A stretch of 64,000 bases of DNA. It comes from an uncultured virus (IMG/VR IMGVR_UViG_3300025879_001642) (lineage: Duplodnaviria; Heunggongvirae; Uroviricota; Caudoviricetes). The position numbers and the translations under genes are program-made. The stretch is from the IMG/VR virus record IMGVR_UViG_3300025879_001642. One strand, 5' to 3'. The notes under the pieces were generated by a model. That model did no database searches. It was not told the DNA's origin and was given only the letters and a program-made list of their open reading frames with translations. Shown here piece by piece: positions 17,528 through 38,431 of this stretch (the first letter of the stretch is position 1; each line of letters opens with the position of its first letter).

Positions 17528-17650
17528 TTACTTCTTTATTTTATTGTATTTGTTAATCACAACTTTAATTTGATTTTTTAATTCGTCGTTTGTAACAACA
17601 GGTTTTTGAGGAACCTGATTTGTACTTTTCTTTTTACATCCACAACCCAT
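17528..17650 (-). CDS. small basic protein with MGCGC N-terminus (40 aa)
   Basis: Manual translation MGCGCKKKSTNQVPQKPVVTNDELKNQIKVVINKYNKIKK; own TATTTATA at 17682-17689. Confidence 0.7.
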   Translation of the reverse strand: MGCGCKKKSTNQVPQKPVVTNDELKNQIKVVINKYNKIKK

Positions 17651-17715
17651 AATCTTTTTTTTTAAGGTATTTATTCTTTATTATAAATATACACTATTAC
17701 CATAATTAAATAAAC

Positions 17716-17744
17716 AAAAAACCCCCACATTTCTGTGAGGGTTT
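17716..17744 (-). terminator. intrinsic terminator closing the collagen operon
   Basis: Minus strand AAACCCTCACA-GAAA-TGTGGGGGTTTTTT. Confidence 0.85.
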
Positions 17745-17764
17745 CTTATCTTTAATCTTAAGTA

Positions 17765-20575
17765 TTAAGACATTTCATCTAAATCATCACTTAACTTACT
17801 CAACTTAGCGTGTTGTTCGTTAAACGCATTTACTAATAACGATGTCATCTGTGGGTAATTAACCTTTAAGAATCCATCAGCACTTTCAACAACTAATTCA
17901 GGTAAAACTTTCTGTACTTCCTGTGCGATTACACCGATATCCGTTGGAGTTTCCAACGACTTTGGTTTATAATCACCTTTCCATACGAACTCAACACCTC
18001 TAATGCTCATTGCTTTATCTAACGAATTAGAAATCAATTCTACATTTTTCTTAGCTCTTATATCAGATGCGGGTCCTGTATAACCTCTAGGTCCTTTAGC
18101 TCCTGTATAACCTCTAGGTCCTTTAGGCGCTCCTAATGGTACTATACCAGCAGGTCCTTTAATCCCTTTATAACCTTGTGGTCCTCTAACACCTTTTGTG
18201 GTATTACCGTAACCTTGCGGTCCTTGATTACCTCTACTGTTACTCGCAGTACCTTGGTTACCAGGTTCACCTACATTTCCTGTTGGTCCTTGGTTACCTC
18301 TTGGTTGTGGGTCTCCTATTGAATTCCAATATTCCCTTCCATTTAACCCTCGGCTACCTTTTTTACCTTTAACACCTTTATTACCTTTAGGTCCTCCGTC
18401 ACCAGGTCCTCCACGGTAGCTATCACCTTGTGGTCCTTGTGCACCAGTGGCTCCCATAGTTTTACCAGGTCTGTTACCTTTGATACCTTTGTAACCCTTA
18501 ACACCTTTAGTAGTATTTGCATCCCCACCTTGTCCACCAGGTCCTCTATTACCTTTAGTTCCGATATTACCTTTAGGTCCTTTTGGTGAGTATCCTGTTG
18601 GTCCTTGGTTACCTGTAGCACCTTTGTAACCTTTGTTACCTTTAGTACCTTTATCTCCAGGTCCTCCTTGTGGCCCTACTGGTCCTTGTGGTCCTACTGG
18701 TTGATATCCTTTAGGTCCTGCGTTTCCTTTAGGTCCTTTTCCACCAGCATTACCTTTAAGTAAGTTGGTCGTGTAACCTTTGTCCCCTAATGGTCCTACG
18801 TCTCCTCTATTACCTTTAGGTCCTTTGTTACCTTTAACCCCTTGAGGTCTAGCACCAATATTACCTTTAAGTCCTACGTAACCTTTAACACCTTTGATAC
18901 CTTTTCCACCTGTTGGTCCTTGTGGTCCCGTTGGTCCTACTGGTCCTTGTGGTCCTCCCGGTCCTTGTGGTCCCTGTACACCTTGTGGTTGATAACCTTT
19001 AGCACCTTGGTATCCTTGTGGTCCACGGTCTCCAGCGTTACCTTTGTAACCTTTGTTACCAGTAGCACCTTTATAACCTTTAACCCCTTTATATCCTTGA
19101 GGTCCTTGTGGTCCTTGTCCACCTCTGTTACCTTTGGTATTACCACCTTGTGGCCCTCTAGGTCCTTGCGGTCCTGTTGGTCCTCCCGGTCCTGTAATAC
19201 CTTTATCACCAATAGGTCCTGTTGAACTATCACCAACACCACCACGATATCCTTGAACACCCTGTGTTCCTCTGTAACCTTTATCACCACCAGGTCCTGT
19301 AATACCTTTTGCTGATGTGTTACCTTTGATACCCTTAAGTCCTTGGTAACCTTGTGGTCCCGTTGGTCCTTGTGGTCCTAAAATGTTAGAGACACCTTTT
19401 CTACCTTTTCCACCTGTTGGTCCTTGTGGTCCTGTAGCTACTGAAGGTCCTTTAAGACCTTTATAACCTTTAGGTCCAATTATACCTTTATAACCTTTAA
19501 TGTTTCCACCTTGGTTACCCTGTGGTCCTCTGTATCCCTTAACACCTTGATTACCCTGTGGTCCTCTAGGTCCTTTTGGTCCTGTTCCTCCACGATAACC
19601 TTTGTCACCACCTTGACCTACAGGTCCTCTTGGTCCTTGCGGTCCTTGATATCCCTGAGCTCCTTGGGCTCCTTGTGCTGATGGAGTACCTACAACACCT
19701 TTATCACCTTGCGGTCCTTGGAACCCTTGAAGTCCTCTAGGTCCTTTAGTTGTGTTAGCATCACCCTGAATACCACGGTCACCATTAACACCTTTAAAAC
19801 CTTTGATACCTTTGATACCTTTTTGTCCTACCGGTCCTGTAATACCTTTAGGTCCCTGTGGTGAAACACCTTGAGGTCCCTGATAACCAGTATTACCCTG
19901 TGGTCCTACGACACCTTTGTTACCTTTGATACCTTTAGCACCTTGGTCCCCTACAGGTCCTAAGTTACCTACAGACCCTATATTTCCTTGTGGTCCTCTG
20001 TATCCTTTTGGTCCGATATTACCTTTAGTCCCTTGCGGTCCTGTTGGTCCTACGACACCCTTCTCACCAATAATACCTTTAGTACCTTTGAATCCTTTGT
20101 CACCAGGTCCTCCTTGGACTCCCTTGTTACCTTTGTTTCCTTTGGTACCGATATTACCTTTAATACCTAATGGTCCTTTATCACCGTTTATACCAGCGTA
20201 ACCTTTAGGTCCTGTCGGCCCTGTTGGTCCCGTTGGGCCAGTGGTACCTTTAGTACCCTTAGCTCCAACGTTACCTACATAACCTTTTATGTTAGTGATA
20301 GACCCAACCCAATTACCGTTTTCATCGATAACTATGTCAGTTAAACCTTCACCGTTTTTCATTATAATCTTACCGTCCACAAGTTTTAAACCTCCAGACA
20401 TTTTTACCCCACCAGAACCAATTTCTAATGCTGATATTTCTCCGTCGTTACCTACTGTTAGTGGAAGGTTTTCACCCATAGATACTTTCATATCCACAGT
20501 ACCGTTATTTACAAACAATATCTCTGGAGATGATAACCCTTCTCTATTTGGTGTTATTAATATATTCTTAGCCAT
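17765..20575 (-). CDS. collagen-like fibre chain 1 with C-terminal intramolecular chaperone (peptidase S74)
   Basis: Gly-X-Y from residue 98 to 836; SDIRAKKN...RGVEFVW...GVIAQEV...LPELV. Confidence 0.92.
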   Translation of the reverse strand: MAKNILITPNREGLSSPEILFVNNGTVDMKVSMGENLPLTVGNDGEISALEIGSGGVKMSGGLKLVDGKIIMKNGEGLTDIVIDENGNWVGSITNIKGYVGNVGAKGTKGTTGPTGPTGPTGPKGYAGINGDKGPLGIKGNIGTKGNKGNKGVQGGPGDKGFKGTKGIIGEKGVVGPTGPQGTKGNIGPKGYRGPQGNIGSVGNLGPVGDQGAKGIKGNKGVVGPQGNTGYQGPQGVSPQGPKGITGPVGQKGIKGIKGFKGVNGDRGIQGDANTTKGPRGLQGFQGPQGDKGVVGTPSAQGAQGAQGYQGPQGPRGPVGQGGDKGYRGGTGPKGPRGPQGNQGVKGYRGPQGNQGGNIKGYKGIIGPKGYKGLKGPSVATGPQGPTGGKGRKGVSNILGPQGPTGPQGYQGLKGIKGNTSAKGITGPGGDKGYRGTQGVQGYRGGVGDSSTGPIGDKGITGPGGPTGPQGPRGPQGGNTKGNRGGQGPQGPQGYKGVKGYKGATGNKGYKGNAGDRGPQGYQGAKGYQPQGVQGPQGPGGPQGPVGPTGPQGPTGGKGIKGVKGYVGLKGNIGARPQGVKGNKGPKGNRGDVGPLGDKGYTTNLLKGNAGGKGPKGNAGPKGYQPVGPQGPVGPQGGPGDKGTKGNKGYKGATGNQGPTGYSPKGPKGNIGTKGNRGPGGQGGDANTTKGVKGYKGIKGNRPGKTMGATGAQGPQGDSYRGGPGDGGPKGNKGVKGKKGSRGLNGREYWNSIGDPQPRGNQGPTGNVGEPGNQGTASNSRGNQGPQGYGNTTKGVRGPQGYKGIKGPAGIVPLGAPKGPRGYTGAKGPRGYTGPASDIRAKKNVELISNSLDKAMSIRGVEFVWKGDYKPKSLETPTDIGVIAQEVQKVLPELVVESADGFLKVNYPQMTSLLVNAFNEQHAKLSKLSDDLDEMS

Positions 20576-20580
20576 ATCTA

Positions 20581-23500
20581 TTATTTATTGTTTAGTCTAA
20601 GTTTATTTATTTCTTCCTCTAATTTGTCAATATTAATCTGTTCCGCTTTAATAGCTTCAATGATTAATGGTACAACTCTAGAGTACGACATTGTTAAGAA
20701 ACCTAAAGAGTTCGTAGTAACCGATGCCGGTAATACTTCCTTAGCGTTCTGTGCAACAAATCCGATATCATGTTTACCATAGTATCCAACTTCTGCCCAT
20801 TCTTTCTCTAATGACTCTTGTGTCCAATCATACTCAACAGGTACTAAGTCCATGATTTTATCTAAAGGATTTGATATTTCAACAATATCAGTCTTTAGTC
20901 TAACATCCGAAGATGATAATCCACCACCATCATTTTGTGGATAATCACCGCCTGGTCCTCTACACGTAGAAGCCTGAGACCATGAAATACCATTCCAGTA
21001 ATATGTCGACCCGTTAGCAGAATAATATCCTGGTTCCGCTAATTGACCACCAAATGGGTCCAAATAGATAGGATTACTAAAACTGAAAGTACTAGACGTT
21101 TGGAAAATCTCTATATTCCTAGGAGAATTACAACTAGAAAAATAATCACGACCATTAGCAATTATGTGACTGTAGTAAGTAGTTTGTGCTGGACCTGAAA
21201 GTCCTGTATCACCACGATTACCTTTAGTACCAGTAGCTCCTCTATTACCTTTAAGTCCTACAGTTGCGTCAGCTCCAGCATTACCTTTTGGTCCTACCGC
21301 TCCTCTATAACCTTTTACTCCGTTAGCCCCTTTTGGTCCTCTAGGTCCTTTATAACCTTGAGTTCCTGCCGGACCTGTAGGTCCTTGATAACCTCTAGGT
21401 CCTTTAACACCTTTAGGTCCAATCGTTGGTGTGTAGTTACCTCTAGAACCAGGTCCACCTGGGCTACCTGCGTAACCTTGTATACCTCTGTTTCCTTTAG
21501 GTCCTTTTGCACCTTGATTTCCACTTGCGTATCCTTTGTCTCCTGTTGGTCCTTTGTCTCCACCGGCACCTGTAGGTCCACTAGCACCTTGATACCCTGT
21601 TGGTCCTCTACCACCGTTATAACCTTTAGCTCCTTTATAACCTTTATCTCCTTGTGGTCCTGTTGGTCCTACATTACCTATGTTACCTTTAGTTGCGGTA
21701 TTACCTCTTGGTCCTTTTGGTGATGGTCCTGTATAACCTTTAGGTCCTTGGTCTCCACGGTATCCTTTAGGTCCTATGTTACCTTTGATACCTTTGTTAC
21801 CTTTGGTTCCAGTATTACCTCTATCACCTTGTGCTCCTCTATTACCTTTAGTACCTACTGGTCCTTGATAATGTGGTCCTCTGTAACCTTTAACACCTTT
21901 ATAACCTTTAGGTCCTCTGTTACCTTTGTAACCTTGAGGTCCTTGTGGGGCAGTACCACCTACAGGTCCTTGACCACCTTGGCCACCTCTAGGTCCTTGT
22001 GGTTGGTATCCTTTAACACCTTTGTTACCCTTATAACCTTTGTTACCTTTGTAACCTTTATCACCTACTGGTCCTGTCGGTCCTTGCGGTCCTGTACCAC
22101 CTCTAAGTCCTGTCGGTCCTCTGTTACCTTTATGACCTTTCTGACCGATAACCCCTTTTGGGCTACTACCTTGTGGTCCTCTGTAACCTTGAGGTCCTCT
22201 ATTACCTTTGTAACCTTTGTCTCCTACAGGTCCTTGTCCACCTATTGGTCCACCAGGTCCACCAGGTCCTACATTACCTTTGATACCTTTATTACCTTTG
22301 GTTCCAACGTAACCTTTAACACCTTTAGGTGCGATATAACCTTTATCTCCTGTAGGTCCTCTATCACCCGTAATTCCCGTGTTACCACGATTACCTTTGT
22401 TACCTTTAAGTGCTGGTGTTTGATTACCCTGAGGTCCAACATCTCCTTGTGGTCCTATATAACCTTTAACACCTTTGTTACCTTTGGCTCCAGTATTACC
22501 GATATACCCTTGTGGTCCTTTAACACCTTTAGGTGCTACTAATCCCGGAGTATTTGGGTCGTCATTCTGAGGTAAACCTTTAGGTCCCTGTGGTCCTCTA
22601 TAACCTTGTGGTCCTTGATTACCTCTGTCACCTGTTGGTCCTACATTACCTATGTTACCTGTAAGTCCTCTATCTCCAGTATTACCTATGTTACCTTTAA
22701 GTCCTTTACCACCGCCTGGTCCTGCAACACCTTTGTTACCTTTATTACCTTTGTAACCTTTGTCACCTCCTGGTCCTGTTGGTCCTTTTGGTCCTGTTGG
22801 TCCTTTTGGTGATGAACCGATACCCCCTTGGATACCTTTATCACCTACAGGTCCTCTGTTACCAATATTACCTTTTAAACCTACAGGTCCTTTTGGTTGA
22901 TAACCTTTTGGTCCTTGACCTCCTCTGTTACCTTGGTTTCCTTGAACTCCTTTAAGTCCTTTCGCCCCAATGTTACCTTTAGTTCCTACAGGTCCTAAGT
23001 CACCAGTATATCCCTTAGCTCCGATGTTACCTTTGATACCTTGCGGTCCTTGATACCCAACGTTACCCGTTATACCTTTGATTCCTTTATAACCCTGAGG
23101 TCCTTTTGGTCCGATTTCACCTTTTGGTCCTCTAGGCCCTACAGGTCCTAAGTCACCAACGTTACCCTTGATACCTTTAATTCCCTGAATACCTTTTGGT
23201 CCTTGCGGTCCATCGTTACCTCTATAACCTTTATCACCAGGTGCTCCATTATCTGAAGTTTCACCCTGTGGTCCAACGTTACCTTGAATACCTTTGTTAC
23301 CTTTAGGTCCCTTCTGACCTACTGGTCCTCTGTTACCTACAGTACCTTTGATACCCTTTATTCCTTTTACTCCTTGATATCCTTGTGGACCCTTTAAACC
23401 TTGAGGTCCTTTAATATCACCTAAGTAAACACCGTTCTCATTAATGATTACGTTACCCTGAGAATCCTTCAAATCACCTTCAATAATAAGGTCACCTTGA

Positions 23501-23700
23501 ATTACGAATCTCTCAGTACCTGAGGTTTTCATTCTTGCAACCTCAGAACCGTTTAACATAACAACTAAATCATTCGTAGATGCTTCAGTCACTAATGTGT
23601 ATTCCGTACCACCATTATATAATTCAATATTTGGTGCTCCGTCGGCTTCTGCTCTATTAGGATAAATAATTACCCCTTTTGTTCCTTTTTCTAGTGCCAT
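20581..23700 (-). CDS. collagen-like fibre chain 2 with extra globular domain and S74 chaperone
   Basis: Gly-X-Y residues 98-838; about 92-aa aromatic insert; SDVRLKTD...PVEYDW...GFVAQ. Confidence 0.92.
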   Translation of the reverse strand: MALEKGTKGVIIYPNRAEADGAPNIELYNGGTEYTLVTEASTNDLVVMLNGSEVARMKTSGTERFVIQGDLIIEGDLKDSQGNVIINENGVYLGDIKGPQGLKGPQGYQGVKGIKGIKGTVGNRGPVGQKGPKGNKGIQGNVGPQGETSDNGAPGDKGYRGNDGPQGPKGIQGIKGIKGNVGDLGPVGPRGPKGEIGPKGPQGYKGIKGITGNVGYQGPQGIKGNIGAKGYTGDLGPVGTKGNIGAKGLKGVQGNQGNRGGQGPKGYQPKGPVGLKGNIGNRGPVGDKGIQGGIGSSPKGPTGPKGPTGPGGDKGYKGNKGNKGVAGPGGGKGLKGNIGNTGDRGLTGNIGNVGPTGDRGNQGPQGYRGPQGPKGLPQNDDPNTPGLVAPKGVKGPQGYIGNTGAKGNKGVKGYIGPQGDVGPQGNQTPALKGNKGNRGNTGITGDRGPTGDKGYIAPKGVKGYVGTKGNKGIKGNVGPGGPGGPIGGQGPVGDKGYKGNRGPQGYRGPQGSSPKGVIGQKGHKGNRGPTGLRGGTGPQGPTGPVGDKGYKGNKGYKGNKGVKGYQPQGPRGGQGGQGPVGGTAPQGPQGYKGNRGPKGYKGVKGYRGPHYQGPVGTKGNRGAQGDRGNTGTKGNKGIKGNIGPKGYRGDQGPKGYTGPSPKGPRGNTATKGNIGNVGPTGPQGDKGYKGAKGYNGGRGPTGYQGASGPTGAGGDKGPTGDKGYASGNQGAKGPKGNRGIQGYAGSPGGPGSRGNYTPTIGPKGVKGPRGYQGPTGPAGTQGYKGPRGPKGANGVKGYRGAVGPKGNAGADATVGLKGNRGATGTKGNRGDTGLSGPAQTTYYSHIIANGRDYFSSCNSPRNIEIFQTSSTFSFSNPIYLDPFGGQLAEPGYYSANGSTYYWNGISWSQASTCRGPGGDYPQNDGGGLSSSDVRLKTDIVEISNPLDKIMDLVPVEYDWTQESLEKEWAEVGYYGKHDIGFVAQNAKEVLPASVTTNSLGFLTMSYSRVVPLIIEAIKAEQINIDKLEEEINKLRLNNK

Positions 23701-26501
23701 TATTTATTGTTTTTTGATTTGATAATCTCAAGTTTATTATTTAAATCCTGAACGATTTGTCTTTGTTCTCTTAAAGAAGCAATTAAAATCGATGTCATTT
23801 TTGCATAATTAACGATTACCGCCCCACCAGGAACTTCAGTCGTCAATTCAGGTAATACTTCCTTCACCTCTTGAGCGATGAAACCAGTATCTTTACCTTT
23901 CTGTTTAAGTATATTAAATTCAGAATCTTCAATCCACTCAAAGTTTACCCCTCTTAACTTAGTGATTTTATCAATCGCCATTGTTAATTCTGTGATATTC
24001 TCTTTAAGTCTCTTATCCGATGGTGGTCCTTGTGACCCTATAGGTCCTTTAGCTCCTTGATACCCTGTAGGACCTCTAAGACCTTGTGGTCCTGAACCTC
24101 CTGGTGAAGTTGCAGTAGCACCTACCGGTCCTCTGTTACCTTTAGTACCTACTGGTCCTCTAGGGCCTCCGCCACCTTCATTACCTCTATAACCTTTTGG
24201 TCCTAATTTACCTTTATTACCTTTATTACCTTTGGTACCTCTGTTACCTTTAAGTCCTCCTGGGAAAGTAATCCCTAAGTTATCATTAGTTCCTGAATAA
24301 CCTTTGTCACCTGTTGGTCCTGTTGGTCCTCTACCTCCAGTATTACCTCTGTAACCTTTTGGTGCGGTACCAGCGTTACCTTTAAATCCTTTAGCACCTT
24401 TGTAACCTTTATACCCTTGAGGTCCCGTTGGTCCTCCTGGTCCTCTCGGTCCTTTTGGTCCTGAACCTCCTCTAGGTCCTGCATTACCTTTTGGTCCTTT
24501 ATTACCTTTGTAACCTTTTTCACCAGCGGCACTGTTAGCCCCTTTATTTCCTATGTTACCTTTAGTTCCTGTATCACCTTGTGGTCCTCTATCACCAATT
24601 CCACCTTTAGCGCCTCTACCACCTTGGTTTCCTTGTGCACCTTGGTTTCCTTGGCCTCCAGCACCTCCTTTATATCCTTTGTCACCGACAGGTCCTTGAT
24701 ATCCTTTATCTCCTTTTCCACCAACGATACCTGTAGTACCTCTAGACCCTTGTGGTCCTCTATCACCACCAGGTCCTGCGTTACCTTTAATACCTTTGTT
24801 TCCTGTGTAACCTTTGATACCTTTTGCACCTGTTGGTCCTGTTGGTCCCTGTGGTCCTGTTATACCTCTAGGCCCTTGTGGTCCTTGGTTTCCTTTAGCT
24901 CCAATATTTCCTTTAACACCTTTGTTACCTTTAATACCTTTACCTCCAGTATTACCTTTAAGTCCAATATAACCTTTTGGTCCTGTATATCCTTTAGGTC
25001 CTTTATTACCTTGAGTACCTACCGGTCCTGTTGGACCTCCTGGTCCTCTATTTCCTTTAACTCCAATGTTACCTTTAGGTCCTTTAATACCTTTGTTACC
25101 AACGTAACCCTTAACACCTTTATTACCAGGTCCTCCTTGTGGCCCTTGATAACCCTGAGCACCCTGTGGTCCTCTTGGTGAGTTACCCGTATAACCTTTA
25201 ACACCTTTATTACCCTTGATACCTTTGTCACCAGGTCCCCCTTGTGGCCCTTGATAACCCTGTGCACCAGGTGAACCTACAGGTCCTATAACTCCTTTGT
25301 TACCTTTATTACCTGTATTACCAAGGTTACCCTGTGGTCCTTGAGTACCTACCGGTCCTTGAGCTCCTCTGTTACCTTTAGTTCCTGTTAAACCACCTGA
25401 ACCGATTGGACCTAAGTCTCCTCCTCCATTTTGTGGTCCTCTTGGTCCTTTAGGTCCAAAGTTACCTTTAATACCTTTATAACCTTGCGGTCCTTGGATT
25501 CCTTTAATCCCTTTGTATCCTATAGGCCCTTGTGGTTGATATCCTTTATCTCCTTGTCCCCCTTGAGGTCCTTGATATCCGATAACACCTTTATTTCCTT
25601 TGATACCTTTAATACCTTTGTTACCTTTAAGTCCTTTAGCCGCTGAATAACCTTTGTCACCCGTCGTACCTTTAGTACCTTTGTAACCTTTATCTCCTTG
25701 TGGTCCAAAGTTACCTCTGTAACCCTTAAGTCCAGTATCCCCTCTGTCTCCAGTTGGTCCTGTTGGTCCCTGTGGTCCTTGCGGTCCTTGTTGACCTTGT
25801 GGTCCAACATTACCTGTTGCACCTTTATTACCTTTAATACCCTTAGCTCCTCTGTTTCCTGTCGGTCCCTGTGGTCCTAATGGTCCGGTAATTCCTTTTG
25901 GAGAAAGTCCTTTTTGTCCTTGTTCTCCTCTGTTTCCTTTTATCCCTATAGGTCCCTGATTACCTACGTAACCTTTGTTTCCTTTAAGTCCTTGTTGTCC
26001 TTGTGGTCCTTGACCTCCTTGAGGTCCTATTGGACCGATTGGGCCTTGTTGTCCTTGGGCACCAATTGCTCCTTTTTGAGCAGTTGGTCCTACTATCCCT
26101 TCTGGACCTTTAGCACCTTGTGGGCCGATTACCCCTCTGGAACCAATGTATCCTTTCAAACCTTTTTGTCCTTGATTACCTTGAGCTCCCTGAGCTCCTG
26201 TTGGTCCTGTGTTTCCTTTTCTACCCTTGTCTCCAATAAAATTAGAGGTATCACCTACGTAGTCACTTTCGATGAATGAGTCTTGTTCTTTGTTCTTAAT
26301 TAAACCTGTTTGAAGGTTTTGGTTCTTTACTGTGGCAGTACCCTGAGCGTCAAATTCCATAAGTGTTGTTCCACCAGACTTGAAGATAAGAGAACCACCG
26401 GGGGTTAACCCGATGGTAATCTCTTCTACTCCATGTGTGATAACAATACTTGGATTACTTGACCCCGTAATATTCGGTGTGATTTTAATGTTCTTAGCCA
26501 T
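23700..26501 (-). CDS. collagen-like fibre chain 3 with S74 chaperone
   Basis: Gly-X-Y residues 90-827; SDKRLKEN...RGVNFEW...GFIAQEV; stop overlaps the next start (TAATG). Confidence 0.92.
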   Translation of the reverse strand: MAKNIKITPNITGSSNPSIVITHGVEEITIGLTPGGSLIFKSGGTTLMEFDAQGTATVKNQNLQTGLIKNKEQDSFIESDYVGDTSNFIGDKGRKGNTGPTGAQGAQGNQGQKGLKGYIGSRGVIGPQGAKGPEGIVGPTAQKGAIGAQGQQGPIGPIGPQGGQGPQGQQGLKGNKGYVGNQGPIGIKGNRGEQGQKGLSPKGITGPLGPQGPTGNRGAKGIKGNKGATGNVGPQGQQGPQGPQGPTGPTGDRGDTGLKGYRGNFGPQGDKGYKGTKGTTGDKGYSAAKGLKGNKGIKGIKGNKGVIGYQGPQGGQGDKGYQPQGPIGYKGIKGIQGPQGYKGIKGNFGPKGPRGPQNGGGDLGPIGSGGLTGTKGNRGAQGPVGTQGPQGNLGNTGNKGNKGVIGPVGSPGAQGYQGPQGGPGDKGIKGNKGVKGYTGNSPRGPQGAQGYQGPQGGPGNKGVKGYVGNKGIKGPKGNIGVKGNRGPGGPTGPVGTQGNKGPKGYTGPKGYIGLKGNTGGKGIKGNKGVKGNIGAKGNQGPQGPRGITGPQGPTGPTGAKGIKGYTGNKGIKGNAGPGGDRGPQGSRGTTGIVGGKGDKGYQGPVGDKGYKGGAGGQGNQGAQGNQGGRGAKGGIGDRGPQGDTGTKGNIGNKGANSAAGEKGYKGNKGPKGNAGPRGGSGPKGPRGPGGPTGPQGYKGYKGAKGFKGNAGTAPKGYRGNTGGRGPTGPTGDKGYSGTNDNLGITFPGGLKGNRGTKGNKGNKGKLGPKGYRGNEGGGGPRGPVGTKGNRGPVGATATSPGGSGPQGLRGPTGYQGAKGPIGSQGPPSDKRLKENITELTMAIDKITKLRGVNFEWIEDSEFNILKQKGKDTGFIAQEVKEVLPELTTEVPGGAVIVNYAKMTSILIASLREQRQIVQDLNNKLEIIKSKNNK

Positions 26502-26550
26502 TACAAAGAATCAATTTAATTTAGTTTATTATTATTACAATTATTCATTA

Positions 26551-26558
26551 TATAAATA
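26551..26558 (-). promoter_or_regulatory. TATTTATA promoter motif heading the collagen operon
   Basis: Exact motif 49 nt upstream of ATG 26501. Confidence 0.7.
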
Positions 26559-29500
26559 TTACGCTGAAAATTCAACTTTCAATTTGTATAAATCTTTTCT
26601 TTCAGCGTGTACGATGTAGTAAGCATTTACTTCACCTTCCGCAGAAACTTCAACCTTATTGTCAGCGACTGAAGAAACATAGTGTTGTGTTGGTTTACCG
26701 AACGGTGTTAATTGAACCGTGATAGTGTCCTCGTCAACAAGACCAGTCCAATAATCAGGTAATTCAATTACTCCGTCACCCGTAACTTTACCTCTTACAT
26801 AAACTCCGTGTTCTGGTCCCTCTAAGTTACCATACTGAAGTTTCATATTTGGTTTAGTTGGGTGGTCAATTAAGAACGATTTACTCTGTGCTCTTAACTC
26901 ACCCATAATCTCAACATCTTGGTTAATCATTAATGCTCCACCAATATCTGTTAATCTATTTTGACCAACAAATACATTAGTTGCCACAACATGAGTTGCA
27001 GTTACATCATTAAACCTTACGTTATCGGTTGTTCTTAGATTTTGGTTCATTAAGTGAACTTCAGTTGCTCCTTGACCCGTATTAACAGTACTAAACGTTA
27101 CCGCTGAGTTTGTTTTTACGTGTTGGTTCATTGTGTCCGCGTAACCATTATCTGTAAACCTACCATCTAAATCAATATTGATATCAGATAAAGAACCTGA
27201 CCTTCCTATTGTTAATACCCCGTTTGCGGTATTGAAAGATGCTCCGTCAACGTAGTTGTTGTTATCTACAGTATCAACTAAGTATCTACCATCTAAATCG
27301 ATTGTTAAATCTGATAAAGAACCTGTTCTACCGATAGTTAATTGACCATTAGTTGTATTGAATGCCACTGAATCTGCGTAGTTATCAGTATCCGTGTCAA
27401 TAGCAAATCCTGAAACCGCCACACTATCACCATCTGACTTAGTCAGTGTTAATGTTTGTGTTCCTGAATTGTATGTACCACCTGTTACTGTAACATCCGT
27501 CGTTAATGACGATAAGTTAACATTGTAAGATTCATTTGTACCACCAACTGTTAATGTTGTACCGTTAAGTGATGCTCCAGCTAAACCGTTTACATCTTCA
27601 ATTTCAATAGATAACTGACCGTCAGACGCGATTCTCGCAGTCTCTTCAGCCGCTATTCTATTTGTTAATGAAGTGTCAGCGGTTCCTCTAACAGACTCTT
27701 CATTACCTACCCTAGTGTGTAATGAAGTTACTTCTCCATTTGTTACACCTATCTCAGTAGACAATCCTGTTGAGATTGTACCTACTCTCGTATGTAATGA
27801 ATTATCTTTTACTAATCTCGTAGACTCTTCTTTAGAAATTCTCACTTCTAATGAACCGTCGGCAGAACCTGCAGAACCTTCTACGTTATTAATTCTCGAG
27901 TGTAACTGTACAATATCAGCATCTGTAGTATCAATCTCAGTAGATAATGCTGACGATACTTGTGCGAATCTATTATGTAATGATGTTTCACCCGCACTAT
28001 ATGCGTTTGATACATTCACTACGTTATTAGCGATTGAATTATCTTTCACTAATCTCGTAGACTCTTCTTTAGAAATTCTAGTATGTAATGAAGTTACTTC
28101 ACCATTTGTTGTACCAATTTCGTTACCGATTCTAGTATTTAATGAATTTACCTCACCATTTGTAGTATTAATTTCTGAAGATAAAGCTGCAGATACATTA
28201 CCTAATCCTGTAGATACTGCTCCTAATCCACCTTCAATAACATCAACTCTTTCGTTGATTGACGTATCGTCATAACCTGATTGCTCAATGTTCTGTACTC
28301 TAACGTTTAATGCGTTAATTTCAGTGTCTGTAGTGTTAATCTCGTCGAATAAATCTTTAGAAACTTCTCCGATAAGACCTATAACATCGTCAATCGCATC
28401 TTCTCTATTACCTTCCTCGTTAGCGATTCTTGTAGTTAATGAAGTATCAGCCGACGCTCTAACACCAGCCTCAGTACCTACTGCTGAAGATACATTTCCT
28501 ACCTTAGTAGTTAATGAGTCATCTCCTGCTTTGATAGCCACAGAAACTGCTACAGATGTAGCGTATGGATTAAGTGCTGAAGTTAATTCTCCACTCGTAG
28601 TGAACGTTCCTAAATTAACAGAAACAACCCCACCTTTTACTCTATTTAATTTTAATACTTGATTAGTTAACGATGCTCCCGATACATAATCTTCGTTATC
28701 GATAGCGTAATCAATTTTAGTATTTAACGATAAGTCACCAGCAATTCTTGCCGTAGCTTCATCACCTACTTCACTAGCCACCTGAGACGATACATCTGAT
28801 GATGTTGCGTATGGTGCTAATGCCGCAGTTACTTCACTTGCAGTTTGGTATTGACCTAAGTTAACCGATACGTTTCCGTTCTGTCTCGTTAATGTTAATA
28901 CGTCACCTGTGATAGATGCTCCTGTGATAAAGTTATCAGTATCTGTATCATCTTTGAATTGAGATAAGTCAACTGAAACAACACCACCAAGTGCTCTTGT
29001 TAATTCAAGTACGTCTCCGTCCATAGAAGCAGAAGATACATAATCTTCACTTCCAATTCTTGAAGAAGCTTCCGCACTAATCTGAGCCGCTAATGCCGCG
29101 TCCTGTGCGTCAACATATGATGTGTTCGCTTTCGGTGCAATTGCTGAAGCTAATTCTCCTGATGTTACAAAACCTGCTAACGATACCGATAATGGTGCTA
29201 AACCTTGTCTCGATAAGATTAAATCTTGTCCTGACATTGCCGCTCCTGTGATAAAGTTATCACCATCAACATCAACGTAGAAGTCAGATACCACTACTGT
29301 GTAACCATCAGACTTAGTTAATGTTAATTCACCCGTTGCTGAGTCGTAAGAACCTGAAGATACGTTTACGTCAGTCGCTAATGAACTTAAATCAACCGTG
29401 TAAGATTCTTCAGAACCTGAAACTGTTAATACGTTCGCTGCGAATGATGCTCCGTCTAATTCATTATGTGATGCAATATCACCGTCCATACTATCAAGTC

Positions 29501-32500
29501 TTGCAGTGATTGAAGCATCCTGTGCGTCAACATATACTGTATTCGCTTTCGGTGCGATTGCCGTACCTACATACGATTCAGTTGCGTAACCCGCGATTGC
29601 TGAATTGATTTGTGACGTTACTTCAGAAGCCGTTTGGTACTGACCTAAGTCTACCGTTACGTCTCCGTTTTGTCTTGATAAAGTTAATGTATCACCTGAG
29701 ATAGATGCTCCTGTTACGAAGTTATCCGTATCTGTGTCATCTTTAAATTGTGATAAGTCAACTGATACTAAACCACCCTTAGCTCTCGTAAGTTCTAAAG
29801 TGTCTCCGTCCATAGTTGCAGATACTACGAAGTCTTCTGACTCGATTCTACCACTTACTTCCGCAGAAATAGCAGATTCTAATGACGCGTCAGCCGCAAT
29901 TCTTGCAGTCTCTTCGTTTGTTAAACCTGACTCAGTTCCACCAACTCTAATGTTAATTGATGTATCATCATATGCTGAAGCTTCAACATTGTTCACTCTC
30001 GTATGTAATGAAGTAACTTCATCATTCGTAGTTGTGATTTCAGCTCCTAAAGCAGTTGATACACCGTTTATTTTTGTGTCTAATGATAAATCACCAGCAC
30101 TTCTTGCTGAACTCTCATCTCCAATTTTAGTTGTTAATGAACCTACCTCAACACCTGTTGTTGCAATTTCACTCGATAAATCAGAAGCTACGTCCGCAAT
30201 TTTATTTGATAAAGATAAATCAGCAGTTGAATAAGCAGTACCTACAGTGTTAAACCTGGTATTGATTGAACCTACTTCAATATCTGTTGTGCTAATCTCA
30301 TTTGATAAATCACCTGAAACAGATGCGATTACAAGACCTAAAGAATTATCTTTAGATACTCTTACACCTTCTTCTGTTGAAACTCTCGTAGTTAATGAGT
30401 TAACATCTATATTTGTTTGTGCGATTTCAGTAGATAAATTAGCTTCAACAACATCAACTCTATCGTTTAATTGTCCTTCCGCTACAACTCTATCTGAAAC
30501 CTCCGTTGAAATCTTACCGTCTAATACAACGTCTGCAGATATTCTGTCAGCAATTTCAGCGTCTATTTTATTATCGATTACTGTGTCATCGTATGCTCCT
30601 TGTTCGATATTACCTAAACGTGTATCGATAGAAGTAACTTCACCGTCAACTAAATCTTCAGCTAATGATACTCTCGTAGTTAATGAACCTGATTTACTCT
30701 CTTCAGCAGTTAATCTTGTTTTAATACCATTAACTTCACCATCTAATAATGAATCTTTAGCTAATCTCGTTGAAGCTTCACTAACAACCGCATTACTTAC
30801 AGAAGTAACAACACCATTAGTGTTTGTTATCTTAGTATTTAATGAACTATCAGCAGTCGCTCTGTTAACCTCCTCAGATGAAACTCTGTTGTGAAGTGAA
30901 ACGTCTTTTGCCGTTAATGAAGTATCAGCATCTTCTCTAGCACCTTCTTCAACACCAACTCTACTATTTAATGCAGTGATTTCACCACCTGTAGTGTTGA
31001 TTTCTGAAGCTAACGCCGTTGAGATGTTACCAATCTTATTACTTAATGAACCGTCAGCTAAAACTCTTGATGATGCTTCGTTAGAAATCTCAGAATCTAA
31101 ACTATCTTCAACACCACTAACTCTAATGTTAATTGATGTATCACTGTAAGCCGCATTGTCTAAAGAAACAACAGAAGATAATCTTACTGATTCTTCAGCC
31201 GCAATTCTATTAGTTAATGTGTCATCAGCAGTTTCTCTGTTAGCTTGTTCTAATGATAATGAATCCCCTAATTGAGCGATTTCTGTATCTATTGAAATAT
31301 CAGCAGAAACTCTATCAGCAACTTCATCAGAAATTAAGACTCCGTTTGCAATATCACCTTGTGTTCTGTAAACTTCTTCGTTAGAAATTCTCTCACCAAT
31401 CGATGCTTGGTTTGTTAAGATACTTGAAATATCACCATCATTATTTTCTAATTCAGTCTGTAACTCTTTTAACGTATCGTATGCTTCACCAGCACCGTTA
31501 ACTACACCGTCAATCGCATCTGCAATCGCAGCCTCTCTAACAGACGCTTCAATACTTACTTTAGAATCTATTTTAGAATCTAACGTGTTTAAAGAACCAC
31601 TAACTTCAACTAATCTATCATCAACTGATTCTACTCCGTCTTCTACGTTACTTACTCTAGTTACGATTGATGATGTATCACCACCTGTCGCAGCTTCTAA
31701 AGAGTCAATTCTTGAATCTAATTCATTGTCAGCAGCAATTCTACTACCTTCCTCTGAAGAAATCTGACCTTCTAAATCTTCAATAGATAAGTTAGTCTCT
31801 GATAAGTTGTCACCAATTACAGTTGCCAATGATTGGTCAGCTGCGAATCTTAATGAACCTTGTGCTGAAATTTCAATAGATAATTGGTTGTCTTTTGAAT
31901 CTGTATAAGACTCTAAATCACCAATCTTAGTAGCTAATGATGCATCAGCCGATTCTAATGTTGAAACCTCAGTATCAATTTTAGTGTTTAATGTATTATC
32001 ACCTAAAGTTCTAGCGTTTACTTCGTTTGTTAATTGACCACCTAATAATGTGATATCGTTTGATAACGTACCAACTTCAGAATCAATCTTAGAATCTAAA
32101 GAATCGTCAGCAACTACTCTTGTTGATGCTTCACCAACAATTTTAGTATCTAATGATGAATCTCCAGTTAATGATGTAGTAATCGCAGAGTTTAATTTAG
32201 CCGTTAATGATTCATCAGCAGTTGATAAATCAGAAGAAATTAAACCATCAACTAATGTTAATGATAAATCTTTAGCCGCTCTTAATGATTCTTCATCTGA
32301 AACTCTCGTCTCTAAAGATGCTGAGAAATCTTCTGAATCCCCAACTCTTTCGTTGATACTTGAATCGTTATATGCCGCAGCTTCTAACTCACTAATTTTA
32401 GTTTCTAATGAACCATCAGCAGTAACTCTTAATGCTGACTCCTCACCAATCTTAGTCTCTAATGAATCATCACCGTCAACTCTTAATGCTGATTCTACAC

Positions 32501-33311
32501 TAATCTTACTATCTAAAGTATCGTCAGCGTCAACTCTTGCAGCTGATTCAACACCAATTGCAGTATCAATAGATGCTACATCACCTGTTAATTGAGTGTC
32601 TAAGTCAGATATTAAACCTGATTTTGATACTTCTTCTAATGATAATCTTGTTTCAACTGAAACAACATCACCCTCAATTACTAAAGCTCTGTCATCTACT
32701 GAATCGATATCAGCAGTTACTTCACCTGTAATTTCATTTGTTAATGATGTGATTGCCGTTTCTCTAACTACTTCTTCAGTCGAGACTCTCGTCGCTAATG
32801 AACTTACTTCGAAGTTAGTCGTACTAATCTCATCACTTAGTTGTGTCGACACCCCTGTAGATACCTGACCAACTAATGTCGCTAACGAATCATCCGCAGA
32901 TAATCTCGTCGCCGCCTCTTCAGTAACTCTTTGAGCAACTGAATTAATCTCGGAAATAATATTCGCTTCTGTAATAGTACCGTCTCCAATTTTAGTTGCG
33001 ATTTCAACTAATGTATCCAAAGCAGCAGGTGCACCATCAACTAAGTTGGTGATTGCTAATTGAACATCATTAGACATTTTGGTTACTAACGAAGAGTCTC
33101 CAGCAACTCTTGCAGTTTCTTCTACCGCTACACGCTCTATTAATGACGTTAAACCTTCAATTGTAAGGTTCGAACCGTCACCATAAAACACATCAGCAGA
33201 TACCGAACCTGCAAAGATTTCATCTAAAGGATTCGTTGGTGTACCAAAATCGACTTCACGACCTTTTGGGTCAGTATTAAGTTGGAATAATCCTAATTGT
33301 CTTAATGCCAT
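26559..33311 (-). CDS. very long fibre protein (coiled-coil repeats, beta-rich modules, C-terminal KSF-x-IDHP domain)
   Basis: 2250 aa; E..R...D.SL repeats; GAPAALDTLVEIA and GAGEAYDTLKEL motifs; DLDGR modules; AQSKSFLIDHP...LEGPE..VYVRG. Confidence 0.85.
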   Translation of the reverse strand: MALRQLGLFQLNTDPKGREVDFGTPTNPLDEIFAGSVSADVFYGDGSNLTIEGLTSLIERVAVEETARVAGDSSLVTKMSNDVQLAITNLVDGAPAALDTLVEIATKIGDGTITEANIISEINSVAQRVTEEAATRLSADDSLATLVGQVSTGVSTQLSDEISTTNFEVSSLATRVSTEEVVRETAITSLTNEITGEVTADIDSVDDRALVIEGDVVSVETRLSLEEVSKSGLISDLDTQLTGDVASIDTAIGVESAARVDADDTLDSKISVESALRVDGDDSLETKIGEESALRVTADGSLETKISELEAAAYNDSSINERVGDSEDFSASLETRVSDEESLRAAKDLSLTLVDGLISSDLSTADESLTAKLNSAITTSLTGDSSLDTKIVGEASTRVVADDSLDSKIDSEVGTLSNDITLLGGQLTNEVNARTLGDNTLNTKIDTEVSTLESADASLATKIGDLESYTDSKDNQLSIEISAQGSLRFAADQSLATVIGDNLSETNLSIEDLEGQISSEEGSRIAADNELDSRIDSLEAATGGDTSSIVTRVSNVEDGVESVDDRLVEVSGSLNTLDSKIDSKVSIEASVREAAIADAIDGVVNGAGEAYDTLKELQTELENNDGDISSILTNQASIGERISNEEVYRTQGDIANGVLISDEVADRVSADISIDTEIAQLGDSLSLEQANRETADDTLTNRIAAEESVRLSSVVSLDNAAYSDTSINIRVSGVEDSLDSEISNEASSRVLADGSLSNKIGNISTALASEINTTGGEITALNSRVGVEEGAREDADTSLTAKDVSLHNRVSSEEVNRATADSSLNTKITNTNGVVTSVSNAVVSEASTRLAKDSLLDGEVNGIKTRLTAEESKSGSLTTRVSLAEDLVDGEVTSIDTRLGNIEQGAYDDTVIDNKIDAEIADRISADVVLDGKISTEVSDRVVAEGQLNDRVDVVEANLSTEIAQTNIDVNSLTTRVSTEEGVRVSKDNSLGLVIASVSGDLSNEISTTDIEVGSINTRFNTVGTAYSTADLSLSNKIADVASDLSSEIATTGVEVGSLTTKIGDESSARSAGDLSLDTKINGVSTALGAEITTTNDEVTSLHTRVNNVEASAYDDTSINIRVGGTESGLTNEETARIAADASLESAISAEVSGRIESEDFVVSATMDGDTLELTRAKGGLVSVDLSQFKDDTDTDNFVTGASISGDTLTLSRQNGDVTVDLGQYQTASEVTSQINSAIAGYATESYVGTAIAPKANTVYVDAQDASITARLDSMDGDIASHNELDGASFAANVLTVSGSEESYTVDLSSLATDVNVSSGSYDSATGELTLTKSDGYTVVVSDFYVDVDGDNFITGAAMSGQDLILSRQGLAPLSVSLAGFVTSGELASAIAPKANTSYVDAQDAALAAQISAEASSRIGSEDYVSSASMDGDVLELTRALGGVVSVDLSQFKDDTDTDNFITGASITGDVLTLTRQNGNVSVNLGQYQTASEVTAALAPYATSSDVSSQVASEVGDEATARIAGDLSLNTKIDYAIDNEDYVSGASLTNQVLKLNRVKGGVVSVNLGTFTTSGELTSALNPYATSVAVSVAIKAGDDSLTTKVGNVSSAVGTEAGVRASADTSLTTRIANEEGNREDAIDDVIGLIGEVSKDLFDEINTTDTEINALNVRVQNIEQSGYDDTSINERVDVIEGGLGAVSTGLGNVSAALSSEINTTNGEVNSLNTRIGNEIGTTNGEVTSLHTRISKEESTRLVKDNSIANNVVNVSNAYSAGETSLHNRFAQVSSALSTEIDTTDADIVQLHSRINNVEGSAGSADGSLEVRISKEESTRLVKDNSLHTRVGTISTGLSTEIGVTNGEVTSLHTRVGNEESVRGTADTSLTNRIAAEETARIASDGQLSIEIEDVNGLAGASLNGTTLTVGGTNESYNVNLSSLTTDVTVTGGTYNSGTQTLTLTKSDGDSVAVSGFAIDTDTDNYADSVAFNTTNGQLTIGRTGSLSDLTIDLDGRYLVDTVDNNNYVDGASFNTANGVLTIGRSGSLSDINIDLDGRFTDNGYADTMNQHVKTNSAVTFSTVNTGQGATEVHLMNQNLRTTDNVRFNDVTATHVVATNVFVGQNRLTDIGGALMINQDVEIMGELRAQSKSFLIDHPTKPNMKLQYGNLEGPEHGVYVRGKVTGDGVIELPDYWTGLVDEDTITVQLTPFGKPTQHYVSSVADNKVEVSAEGEVNAYYIVHAERKDLYKLKVEFSA
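28840..29880 (-). repeat. internal duplicated modules in the long fibre gene
   Basis: SEDxVxSAxMDGDxLELTRAxGGxVSVDLSQFKDDTDTDNF...LGQYQTASEVT occurs twice (about 789 nt apart); APKANTxYVDAQDA also twice. Confidence 0.8.
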
Positions 33312-33379
33312 TTTGTAATGTTTATTTTACTTTATTTATTTCTGTTTTCACAGATTATTGTTGATTTCTCAACGGGTAT

Positions 33380-34810
33380 TTATATCAACGCACCTAAATC
33401 TCCATTCATTTGGTCACGGAATTCAAAATATGTACCTATATATAGGTCTGACTCCGCTTGCCATGATGGTCTATCGAATGCTACGTTAGATACAGAAATA
33501 TCACCTAAGTTGTTGATAGTCGCTGAACCTGTAACCGCACCGTCTAAAACGATTTGTTGTGTTTTGTTTATTACTGTTGATGAGTCAATCTCACCATCAA
33601 ATTTCCATTTGTTTCCATCAAATAAGATAGACGCTAATGGTAAGTTTTCATCACCTATTTTAACTCCTGCTGGCGATGCTAATAATTCTTCATTAGTCGC
33701 TCCTGAACCTACAACAATTGCTTTATCCTCAATAGTAACCTCTGTTGAGTTAACAGTAAAGGTTTCACCCGTAACATATAAGTTACCTTCAACCGTTACC
33801 GCTCCGTTACCTTCAGAAATTAATGAATCAGTTACTGATAAACCGTCATCACCAAACTTTGCTAATCTATTTGTAGTACCTGATACTGATGAATCACCAG
33901 TGTTGTAATATAATACTGCAATTTCAGAGCCATTACTTGGTACACCCGCAAAATTAATTGTCTGTCCGTTAGTTGAGTAGTTTTCATTCATTAACTGAAC
34001 TAAACCATTTATCTCAACATAAACAACCTGAGATAAATTCTCAGAAACTGTTACAGAATCTAATGAACCATCAGCAACAAATTTTTGATATCTTAATACT
34101 GGTTTAGAACCACCATAGAAATAAGTAATCTGTACTGTATCACCTTCAATCGGTGCTTCATTAAATGTTATTGTCTTTTCATACTCAACGTGAGTAAATG
34201 CATCATCTTTTTCTTGCACTAATCCGTTCACATCCACCATAACTAAAGAAGTCATAGTTTTTGATACGACAAACTCAGTAGTCGCCCCGTCACCAATAAA
34301 GGTTTCGTGATATACTAATGGTTTTGCTTCACCTGATTGAATTGGTACACCTGACTGGTATATCTGACCTGATAAATGTAGGTCGTTATATTGTTTCTCT
34401 GATGCTCCTAAGTCCTTTGTAGAATCTACACTAGGAATTAAGTTAGAAGTTAATTCTGATACGTCTAAAGTCCCTACCTCAACACCAGCGAATGTTGGTG
34501 CGTCAGCAATAGCAACTCCTTGGTCCATTACATCTGCGAATTCATTGTCGGTAAATCTACCGTCTAAATCTACAGTTACAGTTGAACCATCACCCTTTGT
34601 TAACGTAAAAATTCCATCAGTTATGTCAAATGAAAGATTTGAAACTGTGGAATCTGATAACAAACCGTCGATTTCGGTTTCTGTGTAGTACCTCGTATCT
34701 AATGAACCTCCGTTGATGTCAGCCACATCTTGTGTGTGTGTATTTACCTTACCGATAATTGTATTCAATTTCGACGCGATAATTTGTGCTAAATCTTGGT
34801 ATTGTGTCAT
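33380..34810 (-). CDS. fibre/baseplate-associated structural protein
   Basis: DLDGRFTDN module shared with the 2250-aa protein; two F.GDG...V.VNGLVQ...I.F...P..G repeats; TVNSTEVTIED. Confidence 0.75.
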   Translation of the reverse strand: MTQYQDLAQIIASKLNTIIGKVNTHTQDVADINGGSLDTRYYTETEIDGLLSDSTVSNLSFDITDGIFTLTKGDGSTVTVDLDGRFTDNEFADVMDQGVAIADAPTFAGVEVGTLDVSELTSNLIPSVDSTKDLGASEKQYNDLHLSGQIYQSGVPIQSGEAKPLVYHETFIGDGATTEFVVSKTMTSLVMVDVNGLVQEKDDAFTHVEYEKTITFNEAPIEGDTVQITYFYGGSKPVLRYQKFVADGSLDSVTVSENLSQVVYVEINGLVQLMNENYSTNGQTINFAGVPSNGSEIAVLYYNTGDSSVSGTTNRLAKFGDDGLSVTDSLISEGNGAVTVEGNLYVTGETFTVNSTEVTIEDKAIVVGSGATNEELLASPAGVKIGDENLPLASILFDGNKWKFDGEIDSSTVINKTQQIVLDGAVTGSATINNLGDISVSNVAFDRPSWQAESDLYIGTYFEFRDQMNGDLGALI

Positions 34811-34845
34811 TATAAAATGTTTTTTTTTATTGGTTTATATAAGAA

Positions 34846-34868
34846 GGGGGAGAGATATCCCCTCCCCC
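34846..34868 (-). terminator. GC-rich hairpin; weak terminator or attenuator
   Basis: Minus strand GGGGGAGGGG-ATA-TCTCTCCCCC followed by an interrupted TTCTTAT tail. Confidence 0.6.
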
Positions 34869-34891
34869 AATTTTTTTAATTATAAACTATC

Positions 34892-37408: not shown

Positions 37409-37521
37409 TTGTTTTTTTTTAAATTAATGGTTTATTATTGTTATTATAAATACTACGAAAATGTAGTAATTATTCTTTAAATGAAAAATAAGTTTGTATT
37501 TATGAAACTTTTTTTTCTATA

Positions 37522-38397: not shown

Positions 38398-38431
38398 ATT
38401 ATTTTATTAAAAAATATATTAATTTATTTAC

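Follow-up and report, generated by a model that had tools for sequence, protein, structure and literature searches.

The window analyzed here, a 64,000-nucleotide stretch of an uncultured caudoviricete (IMG/VR record IMGVR_UViG_3300025879_001642), codes on its minus strand for three consecutive collagen-like proteins (positions 17,765 to 26,501), each with an N-terminal domain, a long Gly-X-Y rod, and a Peptidase_S74 chaperone. Judged from its sequence, the trio is a compact unit of overlapping or near-abutting genes, and its inter-chain charge pairs run cyclically, from A to B, B to C, and C back to A, the chains being named in reading order (an initial annotation, made from the same letters without database searches, had called C chain 1 and A chain 3). 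The genes and their parts are as follows, with lengths in amino acids (aa).

26551-26558, minus strand: TATTTATA, putative promoter-like motif upstream of chain A; 12/13 minus-strand copies in the window are intergenic
23700-26501, minus strand: chain A (S74 class alpha), 933 aa, from its open reading frame (ORF), Pfam, and the S74 tree
26235-26501, minus strand: chain A N-terminal domain, residues 1-89, presumed virion anchor, related to the B and C domains
24021-26234, minus strand: chain A collagen rod, residues 90-827, 738 aa, 247 triplet equivalents, net charge +88
23703-24020, minus strand: chain A Peptidase_S74 chaperone, S828/K833, Pfam E 1.2e-16
20581-23700, minus strand: chain B (class beta, tip-bearing), 1039 aa, start overlapping the stop of A
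23410-23700, minus strand: chain B N-terminal domain, residues 1-97, related to the A and C domains
21187-23409, minus strand: chain B collagen rod, residues 98-838, 741 aa, 249 triplet equivalents, with a 14-aa interruption at 378-391
20911-21186, minus strand: chain B tip, beta-rich, 92 aa, residues 839-930, between the helix and the cleavage site and only on B
20584-20910, minus strand: chain B Peptidase_S74 chaperone, S931/K936, Pfam E 2.7e-13
17765-20575, minus strand: chain C (class gamma), 936 aa, from its ORF, Pfam, and the S74 tree
20285-20575, minus strand: chain C N-terminal domain, residues 1-97, related to the A and B domains
18068-20284, minus strand: chain C collagen rod, residues 98-836, 739 aa, 249 triplet equivalents, 21 interruptions
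17768-18067, minus strand: chain C Peptidase_S74 chaperone, S837/K842, Pfam E 1.3e-15
17712-17751, minus strand: putative intrinsic-terminator-like hairpin and T-run after chain C, from the sequence

Pfam Collagen (PF01391) and Peptidase_S74 are above cut-off in all three chains (S74 at 50 to 61 bits versus a cut-off of 22), and the chains match PHROG tail-fibre families 6320, 5073, and 819 via the repeat. The rods contain 235 Gly-X-Y triplets in 11 runs (A), 228 in 15 runs (B), and 222 in 22 runs (C), with 10, 14, and 21 interruptions, respectively; the rod coordinates and the lengths of 738, 741, and 739 aa are as the initial annotation gave them, as are the many interruptions in C and the few in A. 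All three rods are cationic (net charges of +88, +88, and +84 for A, B, and C), with Lys in about one third of the Y positions and Pro rare there. An S-D-x-R-x-K motif had been annotated as the end of each chain; it is present in all three but opens a domain of ∼100 to 110 aa, directly after the rod in A (residue 828) and C (residue 837) and after a single-copy, 92-aa domain with two Cys residues in B (residue 931), a domain that the annotation did not mention. The TAATG overlap (at 23700) and the 5-nucleotide gap between the genes are present, as are the flanking signals, with TATTTATA at 26558-26551 and the hairpin and T-run at 17751-17712. A contig of sequencing run X8 reproduces window positions 19403-27500 with 0 differences and one of run X10 differs by 83 substitutions with no net change in length (contigs of 4/24 listed runs were compared). 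The stretch is contained in 20/24 of the listed runs, all of them marine or seawater samples and six from RNA libraries; RNA-library contigs cannot reveal transcript ends or levels, and the promoter and terminator thus remain putative.

Scans of three sequence collections (one with flanks for the best 80 of 127 stretches), together with extensions, yielded at least 14 distinct complete trios, including the window's own (L162/L192, L-numbers denoting sequence loci) and with near-identical copies counted once; because they form about six lineages, the 14 trios are not independent cases. A tree of 57 S74 domains resolves three groups, alpha (A), beta (B), and gamma (C), with support of 95/77, 97/84, and 94/87, respectively, its deep forks being moderately supported because it is built on 109 columns, and there is one chain of each class in 14/14 complete trios. 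TATTTAT lies no more than 80 nucleotides upstream of the first chain in 10/14 trios, and a comparable hairpin follows chain C in all five trios of the window's lineage. A 297-kb relative that is 99% complete has exactly three S74 matches, a Gp23 capsid, and a tail sheath; a Gp23-type capsid and a tail sheath are found in 2/5 related records (the near-complete one included) and neither in the window, and the marine jumbo phage that encodes the fibre may be T4-like. Other searches gave little more: a word-index search found no orthologue of the chain B N-terminus (0/87 candidates) or the tip (0/76), the trio N-termini were in none of 40 inspected among 120 collagen-like proteins listed for chain A, a profile search gave 12 matches of which 6 are N-terminal fragments of the trio family, and no trio is present among 25 genome-contig loci. 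Two candidate relatives, L001 and a 735-kb phage record, are unrelated.

After removal of inserts of at least 25 aa, rod lengths within a trio agree to 0.4 to 3.7%, and across trios they range from 685 to 1163 aa. A summed length range this small arises in 1 of 14,400 label permutations (six lineages), and rather than being uncorrelated, the lengths co-vary in related phages (pairwise r at least 0.997 over the 14 non-independent trios). Within the window's lineage, chain A rods stay at 735 to 741 aa at 35 to 39% non-Gly identity between the more distant phages. One-chain globular inserts (164 to 167 or 359 aa) and the beta tip are variably present, with the rod match unaffected. Inserts of 359 and 164 to 167 aa lie inside one chain's rod only (L006 5325-6401, L236 1987-2487, and the second chain of L163); for the shorter, a weak DUF642 match falls below cut-off, and for the 359-aa one PHROG and PDB give none. 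The length match on which the initial annotation had based a 1:1:1 heterotrimer is therefore real and beyond chance, but alone it is not the deciding evidence: equal length is compatible with one mixed helix or with three fibres, and local register was tested for this reason.

According to the available part of PMC11923368, Lys at position i pairs with Asp/Glu at i+2, i+2, and i+5, from the leading to the middle, the middle to the trailing, and the trailing to the leading chain; in homotrimers the rule appears as KGD/KGE, whose frequency in collagen-like proteins, also those of viruses, that text calls anomalously high. In the window trio, K-G-D/E is nearly absent, with own-chain Lys preceding only 2/52 acidic X residues, and same-chain axial pairs are below background in 14/14 trios. 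Avoidance of Shine-Dalgarno-like sequence as the cause of the K-G-D depletion was considered and rejected, as Q-G-D, with the same codon core, is not depleted (ratio 0.95). Taken in the order alpha, beta, gamma, inter-chain Lys/Arg-to-Asp/Glu pairs show an enrichment that is far smaller in the reverse order. In L198 and L159, with one fixed offset per chain pair (best of 10), offsets of +1, +2, and +1 triplets pair 17/17, 19/19, and 16/18 acidic residues (52/54 in total) and 19/19, 17/18, and 23/23 (59/60), respectively, and these offsets are the i+2, i+2, i+5 rule as given in the same partial source (PMC11923368).

For the window, a fitted three-chain register with penalized shifts scores 13.5 forward and 3.8 in reverse; 0/300 shifted nulls reach 13.5, and at a higher penalty 0/150 reach the score. 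The fitted path gives 44/51 acidic residues a partner, a count inflated by the fitting, and in the lineage's five trios it shifts B by 2 to 3 triplets near the 378-391 interruption. The fitted forward order exceeds the reverse, all three homotrimers, and 60/60 shifted nulls in 14/14 trios. Among the 27 chain combinations possible in the window, the three rotations of ABC are at the top (13.5 to 16.0). Chimeras lose the signal: using four of the lineage's five trios, own-phage trios average 16.9, those with one chain swapped 7.6 (n=36), and mixtures of three phages 2.8 (n=24), with the own-trio score reached by 1/36 single swaps. Inter-chain cation-pi and amide-pi pairs show no clear peak in the window's lineage.

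Insertions and repeats are also matched between chains. L236 and L239 differ by one block of 136/136/135 aa in the three chains, all near rod position 705, and internal repeat periods are common to a phage's three chains at the same level. In 5/14 trios (L198, L159, L236, L239, and L237), a single periodic sequence recurs in all three chains, offset by ∼1/3 of a period and always in one direction (e.g., 45/51/45 of 141), and the periods of 49, 46, 22, and 28 triplets (28 being read from the break map, as the period computation returned its double, 56) are all 1 modulo 3, as a strand-to-strand screw requires. Once the charge-derived stagger is applied, the screw shift in L198 and L159 is 49/49/49 residues, such that charge pairing and repeat shift, two independent features, give the same chain order. 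The window's and L006 lineages have no inter-chain rod similarity (0 diagonals in the window trio). N-terminal and S74 classes are combined in two ways that are related by cyclic permutation: N1-alpha/N3-beta/N2-gamma and N1-beta/N3-gamma/N2-alpha. The first combination occurs in L165 with domains that are sisters of the second group, and for the window's N-domains the classes N1 to N3 are not separable in the tree. Cyclic swaps of this kind would leave a mixed trimer's handedness unchanged at either end.

Interruptions offer an out-of-sample check, as the register is fitted from charges alone. In the charge-fitted register, 30/92 interruptions of the window coincide versus 15.5 expected (p 0.015), with all three chains breaking at five levels, and in four relatives the coincidence has p values of 0.030, 0.068, 0.009, and 0.006. 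Unfitted and at a tight tolerance, coincidence is found in 9/9 trios outside the window's lineage, of which 6 are clean (L006, L059, and L241 are insert affected). At each level in L198, two chains share three 2-residue interruptions at one place, and the chain pair rotates. In triplets 37-97 of the window rods, single 2-residue-type interruptions alternate A, C, B, B, A, C, B at ∼10-triplet spacing, a rotation kept in the window's lineage; these window interruptions are possibly programmed kinks.

The N-terminal domains of A, B, and C are 23 to 33% identical to each other, with no PHROG match, no PDB match of the family profile, and atlas leads all under 0.9. A complex model of residues 1-108 of the three chains, which includes a few triplets, scores 0.84 versus 0.16 for the best of three controls; the mark used is reached by 116/157 solved complexes and 2/215 mismatched pairs, which is a rough guide for this model. 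Runs agree in at least 78% of contacts and partner predicted local distance difference test (pLDDT) values are at least 81, and the model thus supports binding of the three N-terminal domains to one another. One N-domain class is split in L236 (6024-6210), L239 (9635-9819), and L237 (5899-7845), with the first half as a 46-aa ORF and the collagen chain beginning at the second half; in L237 the first half is fused to a 648-aa LamG-containing protein. At the C-terminal end, a profile of the three S74 domains matches PDB entries 6f45, 7dc3, and 8jov, and the Ser-x4-Lys dyad is in 57/57 S74 rows, which were picked by that motif; S74/ICA cleavage requires the Ser/Lys dyad and a trimer, as reported in the accessible portion of PMC8326128. 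The S74 coils have mean charges of +1.5, -1.8, and -1.9, which is only suggestive.

A Cys-containing segment occupies the tip site in beta chains only, in 10/14 trios, with a 5- to 14-aa linker in the other 4/14. The tip model has a pLDDT of 68, a best Z of 3.9, and no Foldseek E below 0.001, and shows neither a match nor a new fold; there is no usable atlas match for the tip, and a single-sequence fold of tip plus S74 is unusable (pLDDT 39.7).

These local register tests (charge pairing, chimeras, insertions, screw shifts, and fitted interruptions) support the proposed 1:1:1 stoichiometry, and the sequences make it highly probable that the three genes code for the three strands of one mixed ABC collagen triple helix. 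With a collagen rise of 0.286 nm per residue, the 247 to 249 triplet equivalents correspond to the ∼210 nm initially proposed.

Several observations weigh against this interpretation. In the window itself, fixed offsets perform weakly (A to B, 12/20, p 0.09; B to C, 11/18, p 0.1; C to A, 11/14, p 0.004; uncorrected for 10 offsets), and significance depends on a register with a few fitted shifts. Interruption numbers are unequal (10/14/21), and their unfitted coincidence at a tight tolerance is significant in 0/5 trios of the window's lineage; in rescaled raw coordinates it is non-significant in 10/14 trios and significant in 4/14, and for phase-shifting breaks taken alone it is significant in 0/14. 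The K-G-D depletion is partly dialect, Lys being also rare before G-A, G-S, and G-G (0.09 to 0.12), and same-chain K-G-Y/F is ∼1.8-fold enriched, which would suit a homotrimer, with K-G-I and K-G-V equally so. Fixed offsets of the L006 lineage sum to 1 (lateral) and not 4, and its beta homotrimers score 15 to 21 versus 25 to 28. A regional screw test of L236, L239, and L237 gives equal shifts in 1/6 regions, at 52 and not the expected 49, with few charges. The N-terminal model covered ABC only and says little on mixed versus pure trimers, since close paralogues can pass too. Two of the 27 incomplete loci are not matched in rod length: in L209 the alpha rod is 1276 aa and the beta rod about 1406, and L188, at a contig end, has rods of 138 versus 94; repeat collapse is possible in L209, as the L163 and L168 beta chains are 99.9 to 100% identical to its own and the alpha chains are longer. 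Broken frames are present at the incomplete loci L138, L075, L205, and L240.

Of the alternatives, a looser assembly, in which ABC is favored but functional homotrimers or AAB-type trimers are made as well, survives best and is nonetheless improbable. The window's AAC (11.7) and ACA/CAA (10.9) combinations are not far under the ABC rotations, and both the L006-lineage beta homotrimers and the modest differences between the S74 coil charges would accommodate it, but the strict one-of-each composition of all 14 trios would not, nor would the negative homotrimer scores in L236, L239, L237, L198, and L159.

Three separate homotrimeric fibres, with lengths equalized by a common virion ruler, are very unlikely. 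The precedents are real, since the solved S74/ICA domains matched here, that of MYRF aside, are homotrimers, and the differing interruption counts and their non-significant unfitted coincidence in the window's lineage fit three fibres; the MYRF S74/ICA domain was likewise solved as a homotrimer, as given in the accessible portion of PMC8326128. However, separate fibres account for total length only and leave unexplained the directional inter-chain pairing in 14/14 trios, its loss in chimeras, the same-level insertions, and the third-of-period shifts, and only 10/48, 15/63, and 8/57 of the possible homotrimer bridges are realized. A nine-chain cable, with three homotrimers side by side in register, also predicts chains of matched length, with insertions at the same level and a degree of charge pairing between chains; the +1, +2, +1 offsets and the 49/49/49 shift of L198 and L159, which are single-helix geometry with a one-residue stagger, and the depletion of same-chain axial pairs in all 14 trios make it less likely still. 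Gene conversion among tandem paralogues could also make the lengths equal incidentally, in the absence of selection on register; this would suit the shared rod sequence in 5/14 trios and the exchanged N and C ends, but it is barely credible and largely refuted by the missing similarity in the window trio and by similarity that lies at a third of a period (identity near offset 0 is background, 0.17 to 0.27), with the constancy of chain A length in the lineage also against it.

If the chains do form a mixed ABC helix, assembly would begin with balanced synthesis from the coupled genes, followed by trimerization of the three S74 domains at the C-terminus, which would nucleate folding and set the register. 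The helix would then zip toward the N-terminus, held together by Lys-Asp bridges from one chain to another, and the S74 domains are predicted to release themselves by cleavage at their Ser/Lys dyads, in the manner of a self-cleaving C-propeptide. In other fibres, S74 domains lie at the far fibre end and are shed. The N-terminal domains would form a mixed trimer anchoring the fibre on the virion, and the product would be a thin, strongly cationic, ∼210-nm rod with one chain B tip at its far end, whose role is most likely host capture or adhesion. In the relatives, rods may grow by recombination among the three genes, with chain ends swapped cyclically and equal length added to each strand.

The surrounding genes include candidate modifiers of the chains.

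48368-49762, minus strand: LH3/PLOD3- and mimivirus R699-like glycosyltransferase with no hydroxylase domain; Pfam GT_PLOD, PDB LH3 E 3e-54, R699 E 5e-48

Homologues of this glycosyltransferase are present in 5/5 related records, and in L198 (11171-13249) and L159 (7430-8863) the gene lies ∼1.1 kb upstream of the trio; the L198 protein carries an inserted methyltransferase domain. The LH-type family PF03171 is in 0/5 relatives, and PF13640 oxygenases are in 5/5, including 2-oxoglutarate/Fe (2OG-Fe) oxygenase genes ∼4 to 6 kb downstream of the trio (G003 C1 26916-27191 and G002 C1 48468-48746). The glycosyltransferase and the PF13640 oxygenases could modify the trio chains.

Among the 38 window ORFs scanned, neighbors include a sigma factor, lysins, thymidylate synthase, and tail-fibre-like genes; genes for a polyphosphate kinase 2, a carbamoyltransferase, and MarC (Pfam) are at 42176-44017, 2807-4579, and 2212-2805, respectively. 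Clustered at 26559-40567 (minus strand) are acidic coiled-coil or repeat proteins of 2250, 476, 838, 291, and 711 aa, two of which have weak tail-fibre PHROG matches, and the 2250-aa gene is immediately before chain A in the five trios of the window's lineage (2015 to 2273 aa where complete). A short ORF (MGCGCKKK..., 17590-17630, minus strand) apparently follows the terminator, behind a further copy of TATTTATA at 17689, as seen by eye. Other collagen-like proteins were also encountered: L003 (4121-13462 of a 1.02-Mb virus record) has Lys-rich collagens of similar triplet dialect with no S74 motif, and L002 (10565-41035 of the 735-kb phage record) codes for proteins, the longest of 3487 aa, that consist mainly of Gly-Thr-Ser and Gly-Ser-Ser triplets. 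TLP-3 is described, in the part of the preprint available, as a glycosylated fibril, a tripeptide triplex whose third position is Ser/Thr (bioRxiv 10.1101/2025.09.30.679562), and a link to the L002 proteins is only a guess.

By domains, the trio is closest to S74/ICA phage fibres and spikes (PDB 6f45, a long tail fibre distal subunit; 8jov, a tail fibre; and 3gud, a neck appendage), the K1F endosialidase, and the MYRF ICA domain (7dc3), with which it shares the S74 domain, the Ser-x4-Lys dyad, and a C-terminal coiled coil. It differs in having a passenger that is a 740-aa collagen helix and not a triple beta-helix, in the proposed use of three different S74 paralogues per fibre, and in one chain with a tip looped out before the cleavage site. 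A Gly-X-Y rod between terminal domains is shared with Scl2, EPclA, and phage collagen-like proteins. The available text of PMC8968730 describes prokaryotic collagen-like proteins as homotrimers, and unlike the KGD-rich ones in the excerpted PMC11923368, the trio almost lacks same-chain K-G-D/E. Mimivirus (proteins L230 and R699) likewise combines Lys-rich collagens with a glycosyltransferase of the R699/LH3 type, whereas the host of the phage is presumably a bacterium and the window's glycosyltransferase gene has no lysyl-hydroxylase domain.

Heterotrimers of three different chains are familiar in animals, as in collagen IV alpha3-alpha4-alpha5, collagen IX, and complement C1q. Like these, the trio, judged from sequence, would have three chains in a fixed order, an interrupted helix, and a C-terminal trimerization domain, with inter-chain Lys-Asp/Glu bridges by the i+2, i+2, i+5 rule (PMC11923368, available part). 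Unlike them, it is phage encoded, with S74 in place of NC1, COLFI, or gC1q, has Pro rare at Y with Lys in ∼1/3 of Y positions, and would cleave itself where animal collagens use a separate proteinase. No COLFI, NC1, or gC1q is present in the trio chains, for which Pfam gives only Collagen and Peptidase_S74, and no homology of the non-collagen domains to animal collagens was found; the resemblance to an animal ABC collagen is most likely one of mechanism and not of descent. A broader and distinctly tentative proposal is that an independent origin produced an entire animal-like line, with an obligate ABC helix, three self-cleaving C-propeptides that choose and register the chains, phage LH3/R699-like modification (perhaps after a 2OG-Fe hydroxylase), and chirality-preserving cyclic lengthening into a screw-symmetric three-strand module.

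A literature search of main texts, with few subscription papers covered, found no phage or bacterial collagen heterotrimer, and within the same scope the three-different-chain design was found described only for animal collagens. If the interpretation is true, the trio would be a natural ABC collagen made in bacteria, whose chain-selection domain is built in and removes itself, and would offer a route to recombinant heterotrimers. It would also provide a natural collection of salt-bridge registers and paired interruptions, incommensurate interruptions being described as lacking structures in the part of PMC11923368 available, and it would show how a trimeric fibre can display a single tip or side domain.

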